This document shows positions 9,742 to 42,247 of a stretch of 64,000 bases of DNA, piece by piece. Numbering within the stretch: position 1 is the stretch's first letter; each line of letters begins with the position of its first letter. The position numbers and the translations under genes were made by a program. This stretch comes from Alphaproteobacteria bacterium (lineage in GTDB: Bacteria; Pseudomonadota; Alphaproteobacteria; CAAGCB01; CAG-977): NCBI GenBank assembly GCA_017616015.1, contig JAFZYY010000029.1, positions 2,101 through 66,100 on the forward strand. Reading direction: 5' to 3'. The notes below the pieces were generated by a model, which was not told the origin of the DNA, did no database searches, and was given only the letters and a program-made list of their open reading frames with translations.

Positions 9742-11016
9742 ATGGCAGAAGAAAAAAACGACCAACATACGGAAGAAGTTCAGGAAAATTCCGTCCCCGA
9801 GGAAACTGTTAAAAAAGACGAAACAATTGTGACGAACAATCAAACGCCGGAAGAACAGAGCAAAAAGAACGGCGGATTCGGAAAGGTTGTTTTCTTTCTG
9901 CTTGTGCTGATTATCGCCGGATTGTTTGGCGTTCCGCAAACACGTGAAACGATTTTGGAACAATATCATGCGCTTTTGCCGGCTTTTCAGCCCGCTGAGG
10001 AAAATGTAAAAGCTTCGCCCGCGAAAGAAGAAATTGTTATTGAAGCGGAAGAAATTAATAGTCGTTTGGAGCAGTTGGAAAACGCGCGCGAATTTGAAAA
10101 CGCGGAAGTCGTTGTCGCTACTGCCGAACCGCAAGCTCCGTCCGTAACGGAAGATCCGGCGTACGTTATTCTGGCCGATCAGCAAAAAGCTTTGTTGGCC
10201 GAAATCGAACGGCTACGGGCGCAGTTGGATCAGGTCAAAGCGGATAACGAACGGCAAATAAAAGCCTTGAGAGCGATTATACCGAATACGCGCAGATTTG
10301 ACGAACGTCTTGCCGCCGTGCATGCGCGCGAAGACGCGCTTGAGCAGCAGATGACACAGGAAAGTCTGAAGCTCGGCCGTTTGGAAAAGAATAAAGCGGA
10401 CGCTTCTTCAGTTTTGTCTTTAATGACGCGTATGGAAGCCGCCGAACAAAAATTGCGCGTGTCCAATGTGGAAAAAGAACGCGCGATCGCTTTGATGCTG
10501 GCAGTTTATCAGTTGCGCGAAGCGTCTGTTGCCGGAAATCCGTTTACAATGGAATTGCAGTCCGTTATGGCGCTGGCGCAGTCTTTTCCCAGAATAGCTG
10601 ATTATGCCCGTACTTTGTCGGCAATAGCCGGACGCGGCGTGCAGACGCAGACATCGTTGTTGCGGTCGTTTGATACTTATGCGGATCAGGCGGTTTTGGC
10701 TGAAACGATCAGCTCAAAACAGGATTGGTTCCATCAGGCTTTGAATTCGTTAAAGACTTTGGTCGTTATCAGAAAAATCGGCGCGTCGGACGATATGACA
10801 ACACAATCAATTCTGGCGCGCGCCAATCTGGCTGTTCAGGATAAAGATTTGGAGGAAGCCGCTCTGATCCTGAAGGATTTGCAGGGAAAAGCCGCTACCG
10901 CAATGCGGGAATGGACTCAGGAAGTCAGTCGTTACTTAACCGTGAAAAAGACGGTTAACCAAATGATTTCGGCGGTTTTAGGCATTGTGTATGCCGAACA
11001 GCTGAAGGGAGAATAG
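9742..11016 (+). CDS. HemX-like single-pass membrane coiled-coil protein (COG4223)
   Basis: GGGAGG RBS. Acidic N-terminus, one TM helix (VVFFLLVLIIAGLFGV), then a long coiled coil. Sits immediately upstream of a hemY-like gene. Confidence 0.55.
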   Translation: MAEEKNDQHTEEVQENSVPEETVKKDETIVTNNQTPEEQSKKNGGFGKVVFFLLVLIIAGLFGVPQTRETILEQYHALLPAFQPAEENVKASPAKEEIVIEAEEINSRLEQLENAREFENAEVVVATAEPQAPSVTEDPAYVILADQQKALLAEIERLRAQLDQVKADNERQIKALRAIIPNTRRFDERLAAVHAREDALEQQMTQESLKLGRLEKNKADASSVLSLMTRMEAAEQKLRVSNVEKERAIALMLAVYQLREASVAGNPFTMELQSVMALAQSFPRIADYARTLSAIAGRGVQTQTSLLRSFDTYADQAVLAETISSKQDWFHQALNSLKTLVVIRKIGASDDMTTQSILARANLAVQDKDLEEAALILKDLQGKAATAMREWTQEVSRYLTVKKTVNQMISAVLGIVYAEQLKGE

Positions 11017-11019
11017 CCG

Positions 11020-12327
11020 ATGATCAGAATTGTTTGGAATGCGTTTCTGTTAGGCGTAATTGCTTTGGCGGCGGCATGGCTTTCGAATAATCCGGGATCG
11101 GTTCGTCTGGAGTGGATCGGGTATTCGGTACAGACCTCTGTGGCCGTTATTATCAGCGTTGTCATTATAGTTTATGCCGTTTTCTATGCGTTTTTGGCAA
11201 AACCGTTATTGTTGGCAACGCAAAAAATAGCGTATTGGCTAGGGGCGGATAAGCGCGCGCAGAAAATCGCCAAATCGAAAATCGATAAAGAAGTCGATCG
11301 TTACACGCTTTTAGGCAAAGGCTTGACGGCTTTGGCGGCGGGGGATATTCCCGCGGCTGAAAAGTTGTCCGCTCAAATCAGAAAAGGATTTGCCGATGAC
11401 GAAACAAAAATAGTCGTTTTTGAAGCGCAGCTGGCGGAAGCAAAAAATAACACGGTGGAAGCTATGCGTCTGTATGACGAATTAGCGGAAAATCCGGAAA
11501 CACATTTGCTGGGTATGCGGGGCAAAGTCAGATTGTATCGCCTGACTGGCAATCTGGCGCAGGCGACGGAAGTTTGCGCCGAGTTACTGACAATGAAGAA
11601 TCCGCCGCAATGGGTTTTGTCGGAAGCGTTTGAATTGCAAATTCATGAACAGCAGTGGGCGCAGGCAATCGCCACATTGGAAAAAGCGCTGAAACACGGT
11701 TTGTTCGACAAGCTGACGGCCAAGCGGTTGAAAGCGTCCGTTTTATTGGAACAGGCGGCGGTCACGACGGAAGAAACCGAAAAGGAAAAGCTGATTCGCG
11801 AAGCGTATGAAACGGATAAAACTTTTGTGCGGGCGGCCGTTCAGACGGCGGAATTGGATATCGCCAAAGGCGATCTGAAAAAAGCGCGGCGGCTGTTGCA
11901 GAAGTTGTGGAAAATTTCTCCCAGCTGGGCGGTTTACGAAGTGTATCTGACGCTGACGGAAAAGGAAACGCCGATTGAAGCCGTCAAAGACGTGGAGGAA
12001 TTGGTCGCCGAAAATCCCGAAGCGAAAATCAACGATCTGATTTTCGCGGACTGTTCTTTGCGCGCGCGACTGTGGGGACAGGCCAAAACATCGGTGACAA
12101 AATATTTGGAGGCTCACCCCGATTCAAAACGGGCGTTGATGATGGCGCAGGAAATCGCCGCGTACAATCAGGACGAACAGGCCGCGGAAGAATATCGGGA
12201 ACGGGCGGAAAAAGCGCCGGTCGAGTTGCCGTATTTCTGCGAAGTTTGCCATACGCCGTTTGAAAAGGATCATACGACTTGTCCGGCGTGTCATACGTTA
12301 GGGGCGATTCATTTGTCCGAAGTGTAG
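11020..12327 (+). CDS. HemY-like protein (HemY_N domain plus TPR, Cys-rich C-terminus)
   Basis: The N-terminal pattern MIRIVWNAFLLGVIALAAAW...VRLEWIGYSV matches the HemY N-terminal membrane domain. TPR-like repeats follow. The C-terminus has a CEVCHTPFEKDHTTCPACHT zinc-ribbon-like motif. Confidence 0.65.
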   Translation: MIRIVWNAFLLGVIALAAAWLSNNPGSVRLEWIGYSVQTSVAVIISVVIIVYAVFYAFLAKPLLLATQKIAYWLGADKRAQKIAKSKIDKEVDRYTLLGKGLTALAAGDIPAAEKLSAQIRKGFADDETKIVVFEAQLAEAKNNTVEAMRLYDELAENPETHLLGMRGKVRLYRLTGNLAQATEVCAELLTMKNPPQWVLSEAFELQIHEQQWAQAIATLEKALKHGLFDKLTAKRLKASVLLEQAAVTTEETEKEKLIREAYETDKTFVRAAVQTAELDIAKGDLKKARRLLQKLWKISPSWAVYEVYLTLTEKETPIEAVKDVEELVAENPEAKINDLIFADCSLRARLWGQAKTSVTKYLEAHPDSKRALMMAQEIAAYNQDEQAAEEYRERAEKAPVELPYFCEVCHTPFEKDHTTCPACHTLGAIHLSEV

Positions 12328-33526: not shown

Positions 33527-33937
33527 TTAATCAAAAGCCCAATCCAGAATCTTTTGAGGCGTAACGGCAAAGGCTTCGCAGATCATTTCGGCGGCTTCAA
33601 AGGGTTCGGGCAGACCGCCGAAGAGTTTATCATTTGCAAAGATTAAGTGAATTCCTTTCTGGGAAGCGGTTTTTTTTCGTTCCAAATAGAGGTCTGCTTT
33701 TTTGAAAGCCGTTACGGCCGTTTTAGCGTGCTGTTTGTTTTCATTTTGGTTTTCGGCTTCGAAAGCCAGACTGATTTCAAAGGGTTTGCCGGGGACATTG
33801 TACCGGACTTCGTAACGAAAGCGTTTGGTTCCGAAAGCAATATAAGAATTACTTTCGGTGACAGTTCCTAAAATATCATCGTCGTATTTTTCGGCGATTT
33901 TATTGATAAGTTCTGTGTAAAAATCTTTTCTATTCAT
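33527..33937 (-). CDS. Hypothetical protein (136 aa), no recognisable domain
   Basis: ORF only. AT-rich flanks and a strong downstream terminator. Acidic and helical. Confidence 0.35.
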   Translation of the reverse strand: MNRKDFYTELINKIAEKYDDDILGTVTESNSYIAFGTKRFRYEVRYNVPGKPFEISLAFEAENQNENKQHAKTAVTAFKKADLYLERKKTASQKGIHLIFANDKLFGGLPEPFEAAEMICEAFAVTPQKILDWAFD

Positions 33938-34083: not shown

Positions 34084-35049
34084 CTATTTCTCAGGCTCTT
34101 TAAATAAAGGCTTTCCTTGGAACATACGCGCGGATTGCGATTCCATCAGTGTTCCCAAAGCGATCTGACGATCTCTGATGCAAATACGCAACTGATCCGC
34201 GGCGGTCGGATCCGGATTTGCAAAAACGAACCGAATTTCGGGAAACAGTGTTTTGATGCCCTGTAATTTTTGGTGAATAACGCCTAAAATACCGCGTCCC
34301 AACAGGTCGGCGGCCAATTCTTCGCTTAAATCGGAGCTCATGGCGTATTTGATGATAGAGTTGAGCGCGTCTTCCACGCTGTTGGCGTGAATGGTCGACA
34401 AAACCAAGTGACCCGATGTGGCTGCGCGCAAAATCTGACTGGCGCAGTCGGGCGTACGGATTTCGCCCACCAAAATATAACGGGGACGGCAACGCAAAGC
34501 GGATTTCAGCGATTCGCCCCAATCGTTGTTTGCCGGCTCGGTTTGTTTGCACATGCCCAAGCCGCCTCGCTTTGACTGGTAAATGCCGTCCAAGGGCATT
34601 TCCGGAGGATCTTCAATCGTGTAGGCGTAACCGCCTTCACGTTCCAGAAACTTGCGCAGCAAACAGGAGATGGCTGTCGTCTTTCCCGAACCGGTCGGGC
34701 CGGCCCACAAGATCAAACCGGCTTCTCTGTTCAGGGAAATTAAATGGTTCGTTACGGCTTCCGGCAGTCCCAATCTCACAACGTCCGGCGTTTTGCGCGG
34801 CATTCTGCGGGCGGAATACATAATGCCGCTTAAAGTGGAAACGCGTTCCACGCGGTACATGGTGGATCCGTAAGCCATGGAATAGCTCGAGCGACCGGTA
34901 TATGTGCGTTCAAGCGCCTGATGAAAGGTTTCTTTATCGTCCACTTCCAACACCTTCAGGCCAAAGCGTGTTTCGCCGTCATGAATATACAAAGTGCCGT
35001 CAGGCGTGTACCATATATCTGAAAAAAGTTGTTCGTCTATTGTAGCCAT
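34084..35049 (-). CDS. Orphan PilT-like (GspE-superfamily) secretion/pilus-retraction ATPase
   Basis: Walker A GLILWAGPTGSGKTT, Asp box AYTIEDPPEM, Walker B RYILVGEIRT, His box LSTIHANSV. The N-terminal YRVERVSTLSGIMYSARRMP resembles PilT FRVNAF…AVFRTIP. 321 aa. Confidence 0.65.
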   Translation of the reverse strand: MATIDEQLFSDIWYTPDGTLYIHDGETRFGLKVLEVDDKETFHQALERTYTGRSSYSMAYGSTMYRVERVSTLSGIMYSARRMPRKTPDVVRLGLPEAVTNHLISLNREAGLILWAGPTGSGKTTAISCLLRKFLEREGGYAYTIEDPPEMPLDGIYQSKRGGLGMCKQTEPANNDWGESLKSALRCRPRYILVGEIRTPDCASQILRAATSGHLVLSTIHANSVEDALNSIIKYAMSSDLSEELAADLLGRGILGVIHQKLQGIKTLFPEIRFVFANPDPTAADQLRICIRDRQIALGTLMESQSARMFQGKPLFKEPEK

Positions 35050-35138: not shown

Positions 35139-35930
35139 TTATTTATGAATGCCGAACGTACGGAAAAGAAAGAAAAATAAAGCGCAAATTATTTCCATGG
35201 CGGGAGCCGCGGGCAAATCAAAAAATATGGAGCAGGCCAGTCCCGTTATGACGCAAACGATGCCGATTAACGCTCCCAGAAAAGCCATTTGTTCCGGCGT
35301 TTTCGCGAAAAATCTGGCAGAGCAGGGCGGTATAATCAAAAGCGCCGAAATCAGCAATATGCCCGTTGTCTTGAATGCCAGAGCGACAAACAGCGCCGTT
35401 AAAACCATAAAGATAACGGATTGTTTTTTGGAAGATATGCCTTCGCTTTGCGCTATATCCGGCAGAATGGCCGTGAAAATCATTTTTTTCCAGTTTAAGA
35501 ATAATAAAACGGCACAAAAGCAACTGGAAATGATAATAAAAATCAAATCGTTTTCCGTAACGGACAGGACGTCTCCGAACAGGTAAGCCGTCAGATCGGT
35601 TCTGATGCCGGGCATATAGGAAAAGCCGATAATGCCGGCGCATAAGGCTGTCTGTCCGATAATCAGCAACAGTAAATCCGATCCGATGACAAATCTGTCC
35701 GGAATTTGCGTTAACAGCAGAGCGGTCAGGCAAACGACGATGGCCACCCCCGGATTTTGACCGATTCCCAGAGCTATTCCAAGCAAAACGCCGGCCAAAG
35801 CGGAATGCGACAGCGAATCGCTGAAATACGCCATGCGCCGCCAGATCATCAGACAGCCGATCGGGCTGGCCAGCATGGCCATGACAACGGCGGCAATCAG
35901 TCCTCGCAGAATAAACGGTTCAGTCCACAT
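35139..35930 (-). CDS. znuB: Zinc/manganese ABC transporter permease
   Basis: MWTEPFILRGLIAAVVMAMLASPIGCLMIWRRMAYFSDSLSHSAL, the ZnuB/MntB family pattern. The start overlaps the znuC stop. Confidence 0.85.
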   Translation of the reverse strand: MWTEPFILRGLIAAVVMAMLASPIGCLMIWRRMAYFSDSLSHSALAGVLLGIALGIGQNPGVAIVVCLTALLLTQIPDRFVIGSDLLLLIIGQTALCAGIIGFSYMPGIRTDLTAYLFGDVLSVTENDLIFIIISSCFCAVLLFLNWKKMIFTAILPDIAQSEGISSKKQSVIFMVLTALFVALAFKTTGILLISALLIIPPCSARFFAKTPEQMAFLGALIGIVCVITGLACSIFFDLPAAPAMEIICALFFFLFRTFGIHK

Positions 35931-36681
35931 GACGAATGCTCCCGTCCGGCAAATGAGTATGGTCGTGGTGATGTCGGTAAAAAGCCAGCGACGAATTTTT
36001 GCCGAATAATGTGTGATAATCCGGCAGATCGGATATTTCATCGGGCGTGCCGCTGCAACAAATATGGCGGTTCAGGCACAAAACCTGATGCGTGCTGGCC
36101 ATGACGACGTGCAAATCATGAGATACCATGACGATGGCGCAATGCTTTGTTTTGTTTAATTCGGACAGCAAAGAATAAAGCTGTTCTTCGCCCGCCGGAT
36201 CAAGTCCCTGAGCCGGTTCGTCCAGCACTAACAGATCGGGTTGTTTTAACAGTGTCCTGGCCAACATGACGCGCTGTATTTCTCCGCCGGACAAAGGGTG
36301 GATACTGCGGGAAAGCAGATTCTGCGCACCCGTTTCTTCAAGCGCTTGCAACAATTCGGCGCGATCGTATTTGTTTTCCAGACAAAGAAATCGCTCGACC
36401 GTTAAGGGAACCGTGCGCGGCAGATTTAATTTCTGCGGCACGTAGCCGATTTTAATTCCTTCTTTTTTCCAAACAGATCCCTGGTCGGGGCGGATAATGC
36501 CTAAAATGATTTTTAACAGAGTTGTTTTGCCGGCGCCGTTGGGACCGATAACCGTGACAATTTGGTCGGATAAAATGTCGAAAGAAACGTCCTGAAGGAC
36601 ATTTTTTCCGTTGAAGCAAACGGTAATGCCGTCAAGCTTAACCAAAACTGTTTTTGTATCTTCGGACATGTTATCTTTCAT
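35920..36681 (-). CDS. znuC: Zinc ABC transporter ATP-binding protein
   Basis: Walker A GPNGAGKTT, signature LSGGEIQRV, Walker B LLVLDEP. Start ambiguous (MKDNM or MSEDT). Confidence 0.85.
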   Translation of the reverse strand: MKDNMSEDTKTVLVKLDGITVCFNGKNVLQDVSFDILSDQIVTVIGPNGAGKTTLLKIILGIIRPDQGSVWKKEGIKIGYVPQKLNLPRTVPLTVERFLCLENKYDRAELLQALEETGAQNLLSRSIHPLSGGEIQRVMLARTLLKQPDLLVLDEPAQGLDPAGEEQLYSLLSELNKTKHCAIVMVSHDLHVVMASTHQVLCLNRHICCSGTPDEISDLPDYHTLFGKNSSLAFYRHHHDHTHLPDGSIRHVD

Positions 36682-36749
36682 TTTTTTAAAGGCTTGTGTT
36701 TTCCTTTTCAGCGTAATACACAATAAGAAAAAACGGAGCAATCTTTTTT

Positions 36750-37640
36750 ATGATGTTTAAAGTTATTTTTATTGGTTTGTTCTGGTTGCTTTCGTTGGCA
36801 AAAGCGACTTCGGCCGCTCCTGTCGTTGTTGTTTCAACGGCTCCGATTCACAGTGTGGTTGCCTCTGTCATGGATAGAATCGGAACGCCGGAATTGTTAT
36901 TGCCTCCCGCTGTTTCCGTTCATGATTTTTATTTAAAGCCTTCCGATATGCATCGTCTGGCGCATGCCGATGTTGTTTTTTGGGGCGGAGAGGAATTGGA
37001 AACCGCGTTGATCAAAGCGCTTCAGGCTACCGGAAAAGAAAGCCAAAGCGTTTCCGTACTGAAAGATCCCCGATTAACCCTTTTGCCGGCGAGGGGCGCG
37101 GATCATCATGATGAAAAAGACGGCCATTTCTGGCTGATGCCCGAAAATATGATCGCGGTTGCCGAAATAGCGGCTGAAAAACTGTCGGCGCTGGATCCTG
37201 AAAATGCGTTGCTTTATCGTAAAAACGCGGAACGGTTGAAAGAAAGAATCATTTCTTTGAAAAACGAAGGAAAAAAGGAACTTAAAGCGTATGCCCGCGC
37301 GCCATATGTCGTTTTTCATGACGCTTATCAGTATTTTGAAAAAAGTTTCGGTTTGTCGCCGCTGGGGGCTCTGTTTGTCGACCCTCATCATGCGGCCGGG
37401 GCGTCCCGGATTTCCGAAACGCGGGAGAAAATAAAAAAAGCGGGAACCGTCTGTCTGTTTTCAGAACCGCAGTTTTCTGATAAAAGAATAAAAATCGCCG
37501 CGGAGGGACTGCCTGTTATTTTCGGCCGATTGGATCCGCTGGGGTCAACTTTTGAACCGGGAAAAAACTTTTATTTTGAATTGATGGAAAATCTGTTTCG
37601 TTCTTTTGCCGAATGCCTGATTCAACTGCCTGAAAAATAA
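36750..37640 (+). CDS. znuA: Zinc ABC transporter periplasmic substrate-binding protein
   Basis: Signal peptide. Cluster A-1 SBP pattern with a His/Asp-rich loop (GADHHDEKDGHFW). Divergent from znuCB. Confidence 0.8.
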   Translation: MMFKVIFIGLFWLLSLAKATSAAPVVVVSTAPIHSVVASVMDRIGTPELLLPPAVSVHDFYLKPSDMHRLAHADVVFWGGEELETALIKALQATGKESQSVSVLKDPRLTLLPARGADHHDEKDGHFWLMPENMIAVAEIAAEKLSALDPENALLYRKNAERLKERIISLKNEGKKELKAYARAPYVVFHDAYQYFEKSFGLSPLGALFVDPHHAAGASRISETREKIKKAGTVCLFSEPQFSDKRIKIAAEGLPVIFGRLDPLGSTFEPGKNFYFELMENLFRSFAECLIQLPEK

Positions 37641-37650
37641 GGAATATCGA

Positions 37651-39165
37651 ATGAAGTTTAAACTGTTTTTGCTGTTCGTTTTATGTTGTTTGTCCCAAAC
37701 GGGGCAGGCGCGGAACGTTATGCCTCAGGAAATTCGGTATCCGGCAATGATCGGGCGCTTTTATCCGCGCGACGGACGGGAATTGTCCCGGCAGGTTTCC
37801 GATTTGATTGATGCCGCCGATCGCCGATTGCGCGTGTCTGACGGAAATATTCCCAAAGCCGTTATCGTTCCCCATAACGCTTTATACTTTTCCGGAGAAG
37901 TCGCAGGTGCAGGATATGCCGCGCTGAAACGTTTAAAACCTTTTGTTAAACGCGTCGTTTTGATAGGTTCTTCTCATCAGGGGAAATATTTCGGGATTTC
38001 TTTGCCGCAGGCTCAGTATTGGGAAATGCCCAACCGACGTTTTGAAGTCGATCGGAACATGGTCGGAAATCTGATCAAAATGCAAGGGATAGGCTTTGAT
38101 AATTATGCGCATGAAGCGGAGTTTTCTTTGGAAATGCAACTGCCGTTTATCAATGCGGTTTTCGGAAAAGATGTTAAAATCGTCCCCATTTTGGTTGAAG
38201 ACGCCAGCGTGGCGCAAATCGCGGATTTGATCGACGTTGTTTGGGGCGGACCTGAAACCGTCATTATTATTTCAACGGATATGTCCGCGGGAAAAGATGC
38301 CGAAGAGGTCGGAAAAGCTATCCGGGAAACGGCGGCTCGTCTGGAAAAAAAAGACTATTCCTCAATTAAGGAAAAGCATTTTTGCGCGCCGCTGCCGGTG
38401 GCGGGAATTTTGGCGTATGCGCGCGAAAACGGTTTGGAAGTTCAGACTCTTGATTTGAAAACATCGGCCGACGCTTTTCCGATGACGGATAAAGTCATCG
38501 GTTTCGGCGCTTTCGGCATATATGAAACGGACAATTCGTTGCAGGCGGACAGCCGCGAACGTCTGGAAAGCATTTTGCAAACCAATCAGGAAACGTTGCT
38601 GCGCGTTGCCGCACAGTCCATTATAACCGGGTTTGAACGCGGCCGTCCCCTCCGTTTAAGAGAAAACCGTTATCCGGAAGAATTGCGCGAAAAAGGAGCA
38701 ACATTCGTTAATATCTATTATAACGGCGCTTTGCGCGGCAGCTCAGGGTCAACCGAAGCGACACGTTCCATTTTGGAAGATATTTCCGAAAATGCGTATG
38801 CAGCGGCTTTTTCGGATTATCGTTTCATTCCTTTGAACGAAGATGAAATGAAAAAAGCGGAAATATCCATTTCGTTTTTAACGCACCCCGTTCCGATTCG
38901 ATTCGAAAACGAAGAAGATTTACTGTCGAAAGTCGCGCCGCAGTTGGACGGACTGATTTTAAAAGAAAGAGCTAATCGCGCTTTGTTTTTGCCGCAGACA
39001 TGGCAAACGTTTTCTTCGCCGAAGGAATTCTTTATTCACTTGAAGCAGAATGCCGGTTTGCCTGCCGATTATTGGTCGCCGACGGTGAAGGTTTATCGCT
39101 TTAACGTGATCGATATTAACAGCGGCGATTTGGAAAATCCCAAATCGATTTGGCAGTCGAGGTGA
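37651..39165 (+). CDS. Memo (MEMO1/AmmeMemoRadiSam protein B)–AMMECR1 fusion protein with N-terminal Sec signal peptide
   Basis: Signal peptide MKFKLFLLFVLCCLSQTGQA. Memo-like region with IVPHNALYFSG, LIGSSHQGKY, ISTDMSAG and HFCAP. AMMECR1-like C-terminal half (…ATFVNIYYNGALRGSSGS…RFIPLNEDEM…ISISFLTHP…). 10 nt downstream of znuA. Confidence 0.6.
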   Translation: MKFKLFLLFVLCCLSQTGQARNVMPQEIRYPAMIGRFYPRDGRELSRQVSDLIDAADRRLRVSDGNIPKAVIVPHNALYFSGEVAGAGYAALKRLKPFVKRVVLIGSSHQGKYFGISLPQAQYWEMPNRRFEVDRNMVGNLIKMQGIGFDNYAHEAEFSLEMQLPFINAVFGKDVKIVPILVEDASVAQIADLIDVVWGGPETVIIISTDMSAGKDAEEVGKAIRETAARLEKKDYSSIKEKHFCAPLPVAGILAYARENGLEVQTLDLKTSADAFPMTDKVIGFGAFGIYETDNSLQADSRERLESILQTNQETLLRVAAQSIITGFERGRPLRLRENRYPEELREKGATFVNIYYNGALRGSSGSTEATRSILEDISENAYAAAFSDYRFIPLNEDEMKKAEISISFLTHPVPIRFENEEDLLSKVAPQLDGLILKERANRALFLPQTWQTFSSPKEFFIHLKQNAGLPADYWSPTVKVYRFNVIDINSGDLENPKSIWQSR

Positions 39166-39169
39166 GCTT

Positions 39170-39646
39170 ATGGCTAAAATTCTATGGGTTGTCGCGGGGG
39201 CTTTGGTGACACAGGAGGGCAAAGTGTTGCTGTCCCGTCGTCCGGAAGGCAAAAATCTGGCGGGATTCTGGGAATATCCCGGTGGAAAAATAGAAGAAAA
39301 CGAAACGCCGGAAGCCGCTTTGTGCCGCGAATTGAAAGAAGAGCTTTGTTTAACGATCGAACCTGCGGATTTGAAGCCTTTAACGTTTGCTTCTTTTGAT
39401 TATTCCGATTTTCATTTGGTGATGCCTTTGTTTGTTTGCCGGCGTTGGCAGGGAACGCCCGTTTGCGCCGAAGGTCAGCAAATTTCTTTTGTTTCTCTGG
39501 AAACAGTCGGTACGGCGCAAAAAGAATATCCGATGCCGCCGGCAGACGACGAATTATCCGCGCACTTGCGGGCATGGGCAAAACAGCAAAAAGAATTTGA
39601 AAAAAATACAATACATTCTGGCGATATGAAAAATCTTAGTATATAG
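39170..39646 (+). CDS. mutT: NUDIX 8-oxo-dGTP diphosphatase (MutT-like)
   Basis: Nudix box GGKIEENETPEAALCRELKEELCL. 158 aa. Confidence 0.75.
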   Translation: MAKILWVVAGALVTQEGKVLLSRRPEGKNLAGFWEYPGGKIEENETPEAALCRELKEELCLTIEPADLKPLTFASFDYSDFHLVMPLFVCRRWQGTPVCAEGQQISFVSLETVGTAQKEYPMPPADDELSAHLRAWAKQQKEFEKNTIHSGDMKNLSI

Positions 39647-39677
39647 TAATTAAAACTTTTTGTATTGGATTTGAAAA

Positions 39678-40253
39678 ATGACGGAAAAAAAGCGTTTGTC
39701 TTTTACACAAAAATTGCCGAATTATTTGACATTTATGCGCATTTTGGTTGTTCCGGGCGTTGTTGCTTCTTTTTCTTTTCCGGGTGTCTTTGCCGCGTGG
39801 GTCGGTTGCGGACTGTTTATGGCGGCGTCCATAACGGACTGGTTTGACGGTTATCTGGCCAGAAAATTTAAGAGCACGTCCAGTCTGGGACGCACGTTCG
39901 ATCCTATCGCGGACAAGCTGTTGGTGGCGGCTACTCTGTTAATGATGGCGGCTTATGATCGTCTGGGATATACGGGGTTGTGGCCCGCGGTGATTATTTT
40001 ATGCCGCGAAGTGCTGGTGTCGGGTTTGCGTGAGTTTCTGGCGGAAATCAAGGTCGGTTTGCCGGTGACGCGTTTGGCTAAGTGGAAAACGGGCATTCAG
40101 ATGGTGGCTATTCCGATGCTGATGGTCGCGGATTATTCGCCGTGGTTTTGCTATTTCGGCGAAGTGGGGGAGATTTTGATTTGGATTGCCGCTTTGCTGA
40201 CCGTCATTACAGGGTATGATTACCTGCGCGCCGGATTGAAGCATCTCGACTAA
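39678..40253 (+). CDS. pgsA: CDP-diacylglycerol–glycerol-3-phosphate 3-phosphatidyltransferase
   Basis: CDP-alcohol phosphatidyltransferase motif DWFDGYLARKFKSTSSLGRTFDPIADK. Confidence 0.85.
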   Translation: MTEKKRLSFTQKLPNYLTFMRILVVPGVVASFSFPGVFAAWVGCGLFMAASITDWFDGYLARKFKSTSSLGRTFDPIADKLLVAATLLMMAAYDRLGYTGLWPAVIILCREVLVSGLREFLAEIKVGLPVTRLAKWKTGIQMVAIPMLMVADYSPWFCYFGEVGEILIWIAALLTVITGYDYLRAGLKHLD

Positions 40254-40356
40254 TCTTGAGGAGCGAGGACATTGGAAAATGTCCGAAGCGAGGCATAGGC
40301 GGAATTGGCTAAGCGGGGAGTCTGCAAAGATGAAAAGCCCGCTGTATAAGTAAAAT

Positions 40357-40758
40357 TTGCTGTGTCTGCGGATTCATTTAAGTAAAAATGACAAAAATAG
40401 AAAGGTCATCATTAGAAAGATTATTTTTTGTTCTTTGGCATTGTTATCCGGTTGTGCCAATTGTTCGGATTATGCAACAGGAAATTTGCTTGTATACAGC
40501 GATTTGAACAGGGTGAAAAACAAGACTGTTTATTATGAAGTGACAGATCCTGCTGTTATTACGGCCAGAGTTAACCGGCAAATCGAAAACGCTTTGATGA
40601 CAAAGGGCTGGCGTATTGTTCCGAAAGACAAGGCCGGATATGTTTATACGGTTTCAACAGATGTTCAAAAATATGCCCGTACGCAGTATTCTGTTGTTTC
40701 GACTGAATGGGGGACGTATGGCGAATCAAGGACATATACATATCATTTCCGTATGTAA
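40357..40758 (+). CDS. Hypothetical lipoprotein (lipobox LALLSGC); possibly the 5' part of a frameshifted gene
   Basis: 133-aa ORF, low GC. Ends in a TAA that is immediately overlapped by a second ORF in the +1 frame. Confidence 0.35.
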   Translation: MLCLRIHLSKNDKNRKVIIRKIIFCSLALLSGCANCSDYATGNLLVYSDLNRVKNKTVYYEVTDPAVITARVNRQIENALMTKGWRIVPKDKAGYVYTVSTDVQKYARTQYSVVSTEWGTYGESRTYTYHFRM

Positions 40759-41039
40759 TTATAGCTATTCGGGATAAGAATAAAAAAGAGAATGTTTACG
40801 AAGGCTATATTAAGCTGGGTGAGCAATATGATTATGAAAACCTGTCTTATGTTTTAAGCAAAGAAAAAATCCAAAATAAATTGTTTGACGATTTTGACAG
40901 ATCAGGAAAAGTTGCTTGTGAAGTTGTATATAATCCGACAACGCAAGAACATGAATTTAAGGATTGCGGGCTTTTAATTGACACTGTGACGGTTGAAAAA
41001 AGGAATTTCCTTAAAGATTTTTTTTCATCTGGGAATTGA
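40707..41039 (+). pseudogene. Second overlapping ORF (110 aa). Either a separate small gene or the 3' part of a frameshifted lipoprotein gene
   Basis: Overlaps the 3' end of the upstream ORF by 52 nt in another frame, with no independent RBS. Confidence 0.25.
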
Positions 41040-41101: not shown

Positions 41102-42247
41102 TTAGTTGCAAAAATTCTGTTGAGTTAATTTGTCGTACAAATCCTCCGACAGTTTTCGTTCCTCTTCTGAAAACGGCAGAGAAAATGAAAAACCGTTTTC
41201 CTCTTTTTCCTTGTTCGGATCGGTGGGAAACATTTTTATCACGTCTTCTTTGGACAGCTTGCAGATTTTGCTGTAATCGGTCGTTTTGCCTTTGATTTCC
41301 ATCGTGTTTTTGAACGTTATCGTGCAGACATCGTCACTGAACGAGGAAGAAAGTCCTTTGGCTATTTTAACATCGCCGAAAGAGCTGCTTTCCGAACCGG
41401 AATCGTGTTGCTTGTCCCCGTATGCGCAGGCTTTCAGGGCGCCCGACAACCCCATCGTCGAGTATTCCGGAATGTATTTCGCGGTGGCCGGATCTTCGGC
41501 AAAGGAATAAAAATCTATCCACGTTTCGATTTTTTGCACGTGCTTTTTATTCAGAGACAGCTCGAACGGCGGTATTTTTATTTGGCACAAACCGCTTTTG
41601 ACGCCGATTATTTGGGCGGTCATCGAAAAGAACGTAATGTTCTTTTCCGCTTTGGCCGGACGGCAGATTTGCAGACTTTCGATAAAGTCTTTCGGAAGGG
41701 CGAACGTTTTACGCTGCAACCGTTTCATATCCTGATCGGAAAACTTTATCTCTCTCTTTTCGCAGGCTGTCCCGGAAATTTTTTGCCACGCGATGTTCAT
41801 CTTTGTGTTGGTGACGGTCGTTTGCATAGGCTTTTTTTCTTTCGTTCCGTCGGGCTTGGAATAGGTGATGTAAGTCGTGAAGGTTTCCGTGATCCGTTCT
41901 GTCGATTGATCTGTCATCGCGTCATATATGTTCGTCAGCTGTTCGGGCGAAACGGAGCAAACCTGATCGGAAACGACGATGTCGTCCATCTGACTGACGA
42001 TCGAAAAATCGCAGAAGCCCTTTTCGTTTTTACCTTTGACGCGGATAAAGGTCGATATGTCGTCCAGTCCGAAAAACTTTGTGACGGTTTTTAAAATAGG
42101 ATTTGTCGCGCTGAAATCTTCTTCATAAGGCGAGCAGTCTTTTGCGGCGTTCTTTAATTCGTCCGTAAAACGATACAGCGGTGCGGTCTGCGCGTTAGCG
42201 TTAAATGCAAACAAGGAAATAAGCAAAGCGGGCAGACTTTTTTTCAT
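41102..42247 (-). CDS. Secreted Cys-containing repeat protein of unknown function
   Basis: Signal peptide MKKSLPALLISLFAFNANA. Approximately three internal modules, each with conserved Cys pairs. AT-rich. Lies 4 nt downstream of murJ on the same strand. Confidence 0.4.
   Translation of the reverse strand: MKKSLPALLISLFAFNANAQTAPLYRFTDELKNAAKDCSPYEEDFSATNPILKTVTKFFGLDDISTFIRVKGKNEKGFCDFSIVSQMDDIVVSDQVCSVSPEQLTNIYDAMTDQSTERITETFTTYITYSKPDGTKEKKPMQTTVTNTKMNIAWQKISGTACEKREIKFSDQDMKRLQRKTFALPKDFIESLQICRPAKAEKNITFFSMTAQIIGVKSGLCQIKIPPFELSLNKKHVQKIETWIDFYSFAEDPATAKYIPEYSTMGLSGALKACAYGDKQHDSGSESSSFGDVKIAKGLSSSFSDDVCTITFKNTMEIKGKTTDYSKICKLSKEDVIKMFPTDPNKEKEENGFSFSLPFSEEERKLSEDLYDKLTQQNFCN

Follow-up and report, generated by a model that had tools for sequence, protein, structure and literature searches.

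Here we describe an apparently exported fusion of a Memo domain to an AMMECR1 domain, whose gene lies directly behind znuA, the gene for the solute-binding protein (SBP) of a zinc importer. The gene occupies 37651-39165 on the + strand of a 64,000-nucleotide stretch of alphaproteobacterial DNA (contig JAFZYY010000029.1, positions 2,101 to 66,100), which we call the window and whose G+C content is 48.8%. Both Memo and AMMECR1 have been conserved all the way from archaea to humans, where each has a link to disease; to our knowledge there is no established biochemistry for either. We propose that the fusion is a periplasmic accessory of ZnuABC-mediated zinc acquisition, a neofunctionalised Memo-AMMECR1 descendant, and we put the probability of this reading at roughly 0.45. 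Neither the fusion nor its export is unique in itself. What is new is the combination of a Sec leader, the loss of the AMMECR1 Cys and of Memo active-site residues, the lack of a nearby radical S-adenosylmethionine (SAM) gene, and an invariant coupling to znuA.

The protein is 504 amino acids long and begins with an ATG; a Shine-Dalgarno sequence read from the DNA, AAGGAA (37639-37644, +), stands 6 nt 5' of the start codon and overlaps the znuA stop codon. Its architecture is the one proposed in the initial annotation, a Memo-like N-terminus fused to an AMMECR1-like C-terminus, and on this Pfam, NCBIfam and fold matches agree. Pfam places Memo at residues 31-286 (E 9e-35) and AMMECR1 at residues 318-486 (E 2e-35), and the NCBIfam models TIGR04336 (178.6 bits, cut-off 26) and TIGR04335 (163.1 bits, cut-off 99) both score above their membership thresholds; beyond these two families, the two libraries returned one sub-threshold cIII match. 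On the DNA, the Memo (AmmeMemoSam_B-like) domain, residues 29-288, corresponds to 37735..38514 (+), and the AMMECR1 (AmmeMemoSam_A-like) domain, residues 315-487, to 38593..39111 (+). An AlphaFold2 (AF2) model, built from a 44-sequence alignment of the clade defined below, reached a predicted local distance difference test score (pLDDT) of 88.6 and a predicted template modelling score (pTM) of 0.78. Its top fold matches in the PDB were MEMO1, AMMECR1 and LigB-type dioxygenases, with Foldseek E-values and template modelling (TM) scores of 1e-18 and 0.77 for MEMO1 (7kq8) and of 1e-15 and 0.76 for archaeal AMMECR1 (1vaj). The fusion thus shares the fold of human MEMO1 (PDB 7KQ8, 3BCZ; TM 0.77-0.79) at 18-19% identity, although MEMO1 is cytosolic and unfused, and it shares with archaeal AMMECR1 (PDB 1VAJ, 1ZQ7, 1WSC; TM 0.70-0.76) the fold, the DxRa motif (D389-Y-R391-F392) and the R and G of the RGChG motif. 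The joining of the two domains, pointed out in the initial annotation, is real, but such fusions are common and are already labelled B/A by the Joint Genome Institute (JGI). An identical protein, found on rumen and gut metagenome contigs, has been deposited as 'MAG: AmmeMemoRadiSam system protein B [Alphaproteobacteria bacterium]'. The NCBI name 'AmmeMemoRadiSam system protein B' (37651-39165; P0001, P0007) leaves out the AMMECR1 half.

The protein and its close relatives form a monophyletic group of 55 database proteins (42-100% identity), the exported clade, over 53 of which residue counts were taken. Its sister group is composed of leaderless canonical fusions, the nearest outgroup (P0056-P0060, P0066, P0072) standing at about 28-37% identity. 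Canonical AmmeMemoRadiSam B/A fusions (TIGR04336 + TIGR04335) have the same two domains in the same order, above the curated cut-offs in both cases. The exported clade differs from them in its Sec leader, in a new conserved C-terminal tail, in its invariant znuA linkage, in the lack of a nearby gene for TIGR04337 (the radical SAM enzyme), and in the change of the AMMECR1 Cys to Ser and of Memo H131, H192, D224 and the PHAG motif. The tail, recognised from alignment conservation (…D488..S491-G-D493-L..P497.S.W501; 39112..39162, +), is invariant or nearly so within the clade and falls mostly in gaps in canonical fusions. In a scan of species-representative genomes, close relatives occurred only in gut/rumen metagenome-assembled genomes (MAGs), labelled Alphaproteobacteria, Rhodospirillaceae, Rhodospirillales or 'Acetobacter sp. 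CAG:977'. One alphaproteobacterial znuA–fusion cassette (L031, contig CAVCSV010000002.1) is filed under Limosilactobacillus gorillae, probably a mis-binned or mislabelled MAG.

Upstream of the fusion, znuA (36750..37640, +; Pfam ZnuA, E 1e-57) encodes a cluster A-I metal SBP that carries its own signal peptide and has a short loop rich in His (DHHDEKDGH). Its stop codon ends at 37640, which leaves a gap of 10 nt before the fusion start. A mutT-like NUDIX hydrolase gene (39170..39646, +) begins 4 nt 3' of the fusion and is followed by pgsA, for CDP-diacylglycerol-glycerol-3-phosphate 3-phosphatidyltransferase (39678..40253, +; TIGR00560 153 bits, cut-off 109), in agreement with the gene order and spacing first noted. 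The tight coupling to znuA that was claimed for this locus proved to be conserved. In a tblastn survey of 80 species-representative loci, znuA stands directly upstream of the fusion in 21/21 untruncated loci of the clade (at least 42% identity), and it does so in 5 metagenome loci as well; over 27 loci the junction between the two genes measures -25 to +15 nt, with a 4-nt ATGA or GTGA overlap in 12. The gene-called contigs of five homologues (68, 62, 49, 42 and 42% identity) have one layout, (zur-)znuC-znuB-T2SSE running divergently from znuA–fusion. A linkage to mutT and pgsA rather than to znuA was rejected, since L010 and L011 (42% identity) have other genes downstream, with DivIC in the place of NUDIX and pgsA, and keep the znuA linkage; nor is the mutT-like gene retained with the fusion in deep branches. 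Short distances and overlapping codons of this kind are hallmarks that suggest co-transcription and translational coupling of a two-gene cassette. A promoter and terminator scan of 35800-40900 gave counts at or below shuffle expectation and says nothing on transcription units.

Residues 1-20 form a predicted Sec signal peptide of the signal peptidase I (SPase I) type, MKFKLFLLFVLCCLSQTGQA (37651..37710, +), with two Lys in the n-region, no charge over residues 5-20, G/A at -3/-1 and a predicted cleavage after GQA; it was checked for an RR motif and a lipobox, and neither is present. In all gene calls of the clade that reach the N-terminus, the leader has a basic n-region without acidic residues and a core of 11-25 residues that bear no charge; a small-x-small site stands near residues 17-21 and lies 5-10 residues ahead of IRYPxAxG, the conserved start of the Memo domain. 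The character of the leader is thus conserved across the clade, but its sequence is not. Cys is scarce in the mature part (0-2 residues), whereas canonical fusions have 2-11. The AF2 model has a leader helix at residues 2-17, and pLDDT falls below 50 solely at residues 15-22. A lipoprotein leader was rejected because the h-region Cys is not preceded by a lipobox and is missing from many relatives, and Tat (twin-arginine translocation) export because an N-terminal RR pair occurs in one member (P0009) only, with no conserved twin-arginine motif. Export through Sec with SPase I cleavage is therefore predicted here as it was in the initial annotation, and the recurrence of the n-, h- and c-region features throughout the clade makes it well supported but not proven. 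The accompanying view that AMMECR1 and Memo proteins are normally cytoplasmic was oversimplified: a lipobox-like or signal-anchor N-terminus occurs in many canonical fusions, the lipobox-like ones coming from Bacteroidales, Syntrophales and other metagenome sources.

The losses within the two domains emerge from an alignment of about 100 fusions with human MEMO1. Canonical fusions, whether leaderless, signal-anchored or lipobox-type, all keep MEMO1 H49, H81, D189, H192 and C244 and the AMMECR1 motif LRGCIG. In the entire exported clade this motif has become LRGSxG (LRGSSG in the window's protein, with Ser364): the Cys position is Ser in 49/53 members and Cys in 0/53, as against Cys in 49/49 canonical fusions. 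The Cys of the RGChG motif has been described as 'absolutely conserved' and is the predicted catalytic residue (PMC2034487), so that the query departs here from archaeal AMMECR1 as well. On the Memo side, H131 of MEMO1 is replaced by F158, H192 by A213, the PHAG motif by PHNA and an invariant Asp by I224; all 49 of the 49 canonical fusions have the equivalents of H131, H192 and D224, and the exported clade varies there. In MEMO1, H192 contacts glutathione, and its equivalent is Ala in the query. The initial annotation overlooked both the change of the AMMECR1 Cys to Ser in LRGSSG and the Memo losses at Phe158 and Ala213, which on this alignment set the exported clade apart from the canonical system. 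The rest of the AMMECR1 cleft (R362, G363, D389, R391, F392, L447 and P448) is conserved in the clade.

The metal site has a more divided history. The query aligns with MEMO1 so that H75 (in VPHN) corresponds to H49, H109 (in SSHQ) to H81, D210 (in STDMS) to D189 and C245 (in HFCAP) to C244. MEMO1 binds Fe/Cu through H49, H81 and C244, while D189 and H192 are non-ligands (PMC11081632). The ligand triad H75/H109/C245 is invariant across the query's subclade of 29 sequences, in which the minimum pairwise identity is 53% and 26% of the columns are invariant; because it has persisted through that much divergence, the site is likely to be functional in the query, where it makes a credible candidate for binding zinc or another metal. 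In the deeper znuA-linked branches (P0038-P0055), however, the equivalents of all three ligands are lost, and in this these relatives differ from MEMO1. The loss is seen in three or four lineages with differing replacements (S/M/T, H/Q/S, D/G/S, A/N/S), and a search of these lineages for a substitute cluster of His, Cys or Met found none. The earlier statement that the four Memo residues are conserved therefore stands for the query, and for the triad in its subclade, but not for the deeper members; the further idea that a conserved metal site underlies the function can likewise be kept for the query's subclade only. Metal binding at the triad appears dispensable across the clade and so cannot be its common mechanism. 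Decay is not the explanation either: a decaying pseudogene was rejected on the strength of about 60 invariant clade-specific columns and of intact open reading frames (ORFs) in 21 species. Judged by these patterns the exported clade is neofunctionalised, with its deep triad-less branches under strong purifying selection.

The canonical partner enzyme is missing from the surroundings of the gene. As first noted, the window holds no radical SAM gene: it has no open frame of at least 90 aa with a CxxxCxxC motif, and tblastn with four verified TIGR04337 enzymes as probes (355-632 bits) found none in its 64 kb and none within ±10 kb at any of 21 exported-clade loci (0/21). The same probes found an adjacent or nearby gene in 34/58 more distant loci. 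These include L037 and L038 (Rhodospirillales MAGs, 36-39% identity), the loci nearest to the clade by identity, where TIGR04337 is adjacent; next to the leaderless fusions P0057 and P0063 it is divergently adjacent. The exported fusion probably works without a radical SAM partner.

Zinc is indicated by the neighbourhood. The best NCBIfam models for the SBP are ZnuA PRK09545 and AztC, at a score of 193 that lies below the equivalog cut-off of 268, and the Fur-family gene that adjoins the znu genes in deep-branch loci scores best as Zur. Six of these loci (L010, L011, L036, L029, L065 and L026) carry inverted repeats resembling Zur boxes, GTAATAATGTAACAT, GTAATAATATAACAA and GTGATAATATTACAT, which give 11-12/15 matches to the Paracoccus Zur motif, validated by electrophoretic mobility shift assay (PMC5387054), and stand at a constant spacing of 26-28 nt to the znuA ATG. 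The repeats occur in lineages with zur beside znuC, in gene-called or tblastn-spaced loci. Together, the SBP models, the Zur-like neighbour and the deep-branch Zur boxes point to zinc as the probable substrate of the locus. In the window's own lineage no zur adjoins the znu genes and no Zur box can be recognised, and Zur control, for which the initial annotation had suggested a test, finds no support at the window's promoter: the best 15-mer upstream of its znuA matches the Paracoccus motif at 9/15, a value that 67% of random windows equal. Since this is chance level, we claim no Zur control for the window locus. A conserved intergenic element, GCGTAATACACAATAA (36711..36726, +), lies 24-39 nt 5' of the znuA ATG in the window and is shared with L007 and L016-L023; it is a candidate -10 region and/or a degenerate Zur half-site.

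The history of the gene can be read from these observations. In the stem of one gut/rumen alphaproteobacterial lineage, a canonical fusion gained a predicted signal peptide, lost the predicted catalytic AMMECR1 Cys together with several invariant Memo active-site residues, and lost its adjacent radical SAM gene. The fusion gene was inserted right behind znuA, and the linkage has been kept since. The protein would be made together with ZnuA, through operon transcription and translational coupling, and would act in the periplasm not so much as the enzyme it descends from but chiefly as a binding or docking protein. Within the subclade of the window, His75, His109 and Cys245 may bind a metal ion that could be passed on to ZnuA. 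The triad is gone in deeper branches, and the clade-wide role must therefore rest on other conserved surfaces; those we propose are R362, D389, R391 and F392 in the AMMECR1 cleft and the new C-terminal extension, either of which may serve in docking or ligand binding. Of the periplasmic zinc-related role suggested in the initial annotation, the znuA coupling, the Sec leader and the lack of a nearby radical SAM gene all speak in favour, while metal binding as the mechanism of the whole clade has to be given up.

The nearest parallels are AztD, ZinT and ZrgA, exported proteins whose genes stand beside that of a cluster A-I zinc SBP. AztD hands zinc directly to AztC (PMC6689063), and ZrgA is a periplasmic zinc accessory encoded with its SBP (PMC9820375). 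The likeness is one of genomic context only, extended by Zur boxes upstream in part of the exported clade. Several points weigh against a zinc-accessory role. The fusion has no sequence or fold relationship to AztD, ZinT or ZrgA and has no clade-wide His cluster. No His or Cys position is shared by every member of the clade, and in some members of the deep branches His is down to about 2.5 residues per protein, for which reasons a universal metallochaperone mechanism is unlikely. The znuA promoter of the window gives no match to the Paracoccus Zur motif within 3 mismatches. Gene adjacency alone is no proof of functional interaction, the export call comes from a rule-based analysis of n-, h- and c-regions and from conservation, in the query and about 50 relatives, and the absence of TIGR04337 covers the 64-kb window and ±10 kb of each locus rather than whole genomes. 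A bolder version of the proposal, that the Memo-AMMECR1 module has become a periplasmic pseudoenzyme and obligate partner of ZnuA, a new and unrelated class of zinc-uptake accessory or metallochaperone, we put forward with considerable doubt. If it were true, this would be the first bacterial Memo-AMMECR1 pair to work without any radical SAM enzyme, and each of the losses of the His2Cys site would then stand for a change of role, from handing over metal to docking with a protein and nothing else.

Among the rival explanations, the one that survives best is that the protein is a periplasmic enzyme or ligand binder unrelated to zinc import, acting on an envelope lipid, a peptide or a small molecule, and merely shares the znuA transcript, perhaps as part of a zinc-limitation response or with a zinc-sparing function. 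Such functions are common in Zur regulons. The AMMECR1 cleft is conserved, and the replacement of its Cys by Ser in 49/53 members is not random, which fits a retained binding pocket or an altered catalytic one; the metal triad is dispensable in deep branches; the window's operon runs on into mutT and pgsA, the latter in phospholipid synthesis; and genes for large membrane proteins lie next to canonical lipoprotein-type systems, a hint that the ancestral system may have acted on something in the envelope. However, the linkage to znuA alone is invariant, and that to mutT and pgsA is not; the 12 loci in which the fusion start overlaps the znuA stop (ATGA) point to an output matched to that of ZnuA; and no other conserved partner gene was seen. 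We regard this explanation as unlikely, if far from negligible, and retain the ZnuA accessory as the preferred reading.

That the hydrophobic N-terminus is uncleaved, a signal anchor tethering a periplasm-facing protein to the inner membrane beside ZnuBC, is improbable, and it is a question of topology only, compatible with either a ZnuA accessory or a zinc-unrelated periplasmic protein. Cleavage after GQA is a prediction, the h-region is long in some members, where as many as 25 residues in a row are uncharged, and a related gut alphaproteobacterial group has a clear N-terminal signal anchor. Set against these are the small residues that recur at -3/-1, 17-21 residues from the start, the Pro or Gly helix breakers ahead of that site in most members, and the low AF2 confidence at precisely residues 15-22.

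Far less can be said for a working member of the canonical AmmeMemoRadiSam system, with a radical SAM partner that has its gene at another place in the genome and is possibly exported through Tat. Both domains do exceed the curated cut-offs of TIGR04335 and TIGR04336, an adjacent TIGR04337 is missing also from 24/58 distant loci, exported systems with a Tat-leader TIGR04337 exist, and the search for the enzyme extended to ±10 kb or the window. Yet the predicted catalytic Cys is gone in 53/53 members, the equivalents of H131, H192 and D224 (invariant in 49/49 canonical fusions) are lost, the metal ligands are lost too in deep branches, and TIGR04337 was found within ±10 kb in 0/21 genomes and nowhere in the 64-kb window. 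It is scarcely credible, finally, that translation starts at Met24 (ATG at 37720) and yields a cytoplasmic protein with the leader untranslated, for although three database gene calls (P0012, P0015, P0032; 480-481 aa) begin at an internal Met and TIGR04336 homology begins at residue 29, in all other members the 23 upstream codons form an open, in-frame stretch that still resembles a signal peptide although its sequence has turned over, the upstream start is preceded by a good Shine-Dalgarno sequence or overlaps or abuts the znuA stop, and the Cys-poor mature part agrees with export.

The remaining genes of the locus lie on both sides of the cassette. Divergently from znuA run znuC, for the ATPase (35920..36681, -; Pfam ABC_tran, E 4e-29), and znuB, for the ABC-3 family permease (35139..35930, -; Pfam ABC-3, E 4.7e-56), called as proteins of 253 aa and 263 aa in L001, a contig identical to the window locus. 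The last gene of this unit encodes a T2SSE-family (PilT/ComGA-like) ATPase of 321 aa (34084..35049, -; Pfam T2SSE, E 1.7e-31, below all NCBIfam cut-offs), which is found 3' of znuB at every exported-clade locus. Its identity across species is 77-96%, against 40-69% for ZnuA and 42-76% for the fusion, and we have no explanation at hand for a T2SSE-type ATPase within a znuCB operon. A DUF4136-like lipoprotein gene 3' of pgsA is intact (209 aa) in contigs L002 and L004, which come from sister strains; in the window (ORFs 40357-40758 and 40707-41039) its start ATG has become ATT at 40413 and a 1-nt deletion in a T-run at about 40745 divides it between two frames, the mark of either a pseudogene particular to this strain or an error in the assembly. 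Two conserved flanking ORFs, 33527-33937 (-; 136 aa) and 41102-42247 (-; 381 aa), have no NCBIfam or Pfam match, and the 381-aa protein has a signal-peptide-like N-terminus.

Other groups of Memo-AMMECR1 fusions were seen alongside the exported clade. In 3/3 lipobox-type clusters examined, the TIGR04337 partner has a Tat-like [ST]-[RK]-R-x-F-x-K leader: the enzymes (L014:11615-12763, L015:12173-13297, L096:11682-12860) carry N-terminal extensions of about 50 aa with the motifs TRRDFFK, DKRQFLK and SKRQFIK, and a large Spermine_synth-domain gene stands between fusion and radical SAM gene. This suggests that whole AmmeMemoRadiSam systems may be exported, which would be surprising for a radical SAM enzyme. 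A profile search with six TIGR04337 proteins returned at least 8,000 matches, and the 120 listed among them were all proteobacterial leaderless enzymes, so that it was uninformative on Tat leaders or gut partners. A second gut group, from MAGs labelled 'Azospirillum sp.' or Alphaproteobacteria (L055, L058-L061, L063, L064, L077; fusion ORFs near 9800-11400), has a fusion with a signal anchor made up of a Lys-rich segment and about 20 hydrophobic residues followed by NYFYF. Its loci have neither TIGR04337 within ±10 kb nor znuA, and in L060 the fusion neighbours a HAD hydrolase gene and one for a 572-aa protein without a Pfam match. Database proteins of the signal-anchor type (P0062, P0064, P0067) keep all catalytic residues.

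The link between such a fusion and a zinc importer had been put forward as one not described before, and this agrees with the open-access literature, in which we found no description of an exported znuA-linked fusion; a prior mention in Burroughs et al. 2019 (JBC) is possible. That paper reportedly described Memo-AMMECR1 systems. For annotation, the name 'AmmeMemoRadiSam system protein B' implies a radical SAM context that was seen at none of the loci examined. For the two families themselves, a lineage that has kept the two-domain scaffold without the radical SAM partner, without the AMMECR1 Cys and, repeatedly, without the Memo metal ligands is a natural separation-of-function series. For zinc biology, it offers a candidate for a strictly conserved, ZnuA-coupled periplasmic protein in abundant uncultured Alphaproteobacteria of the gut and rumen.

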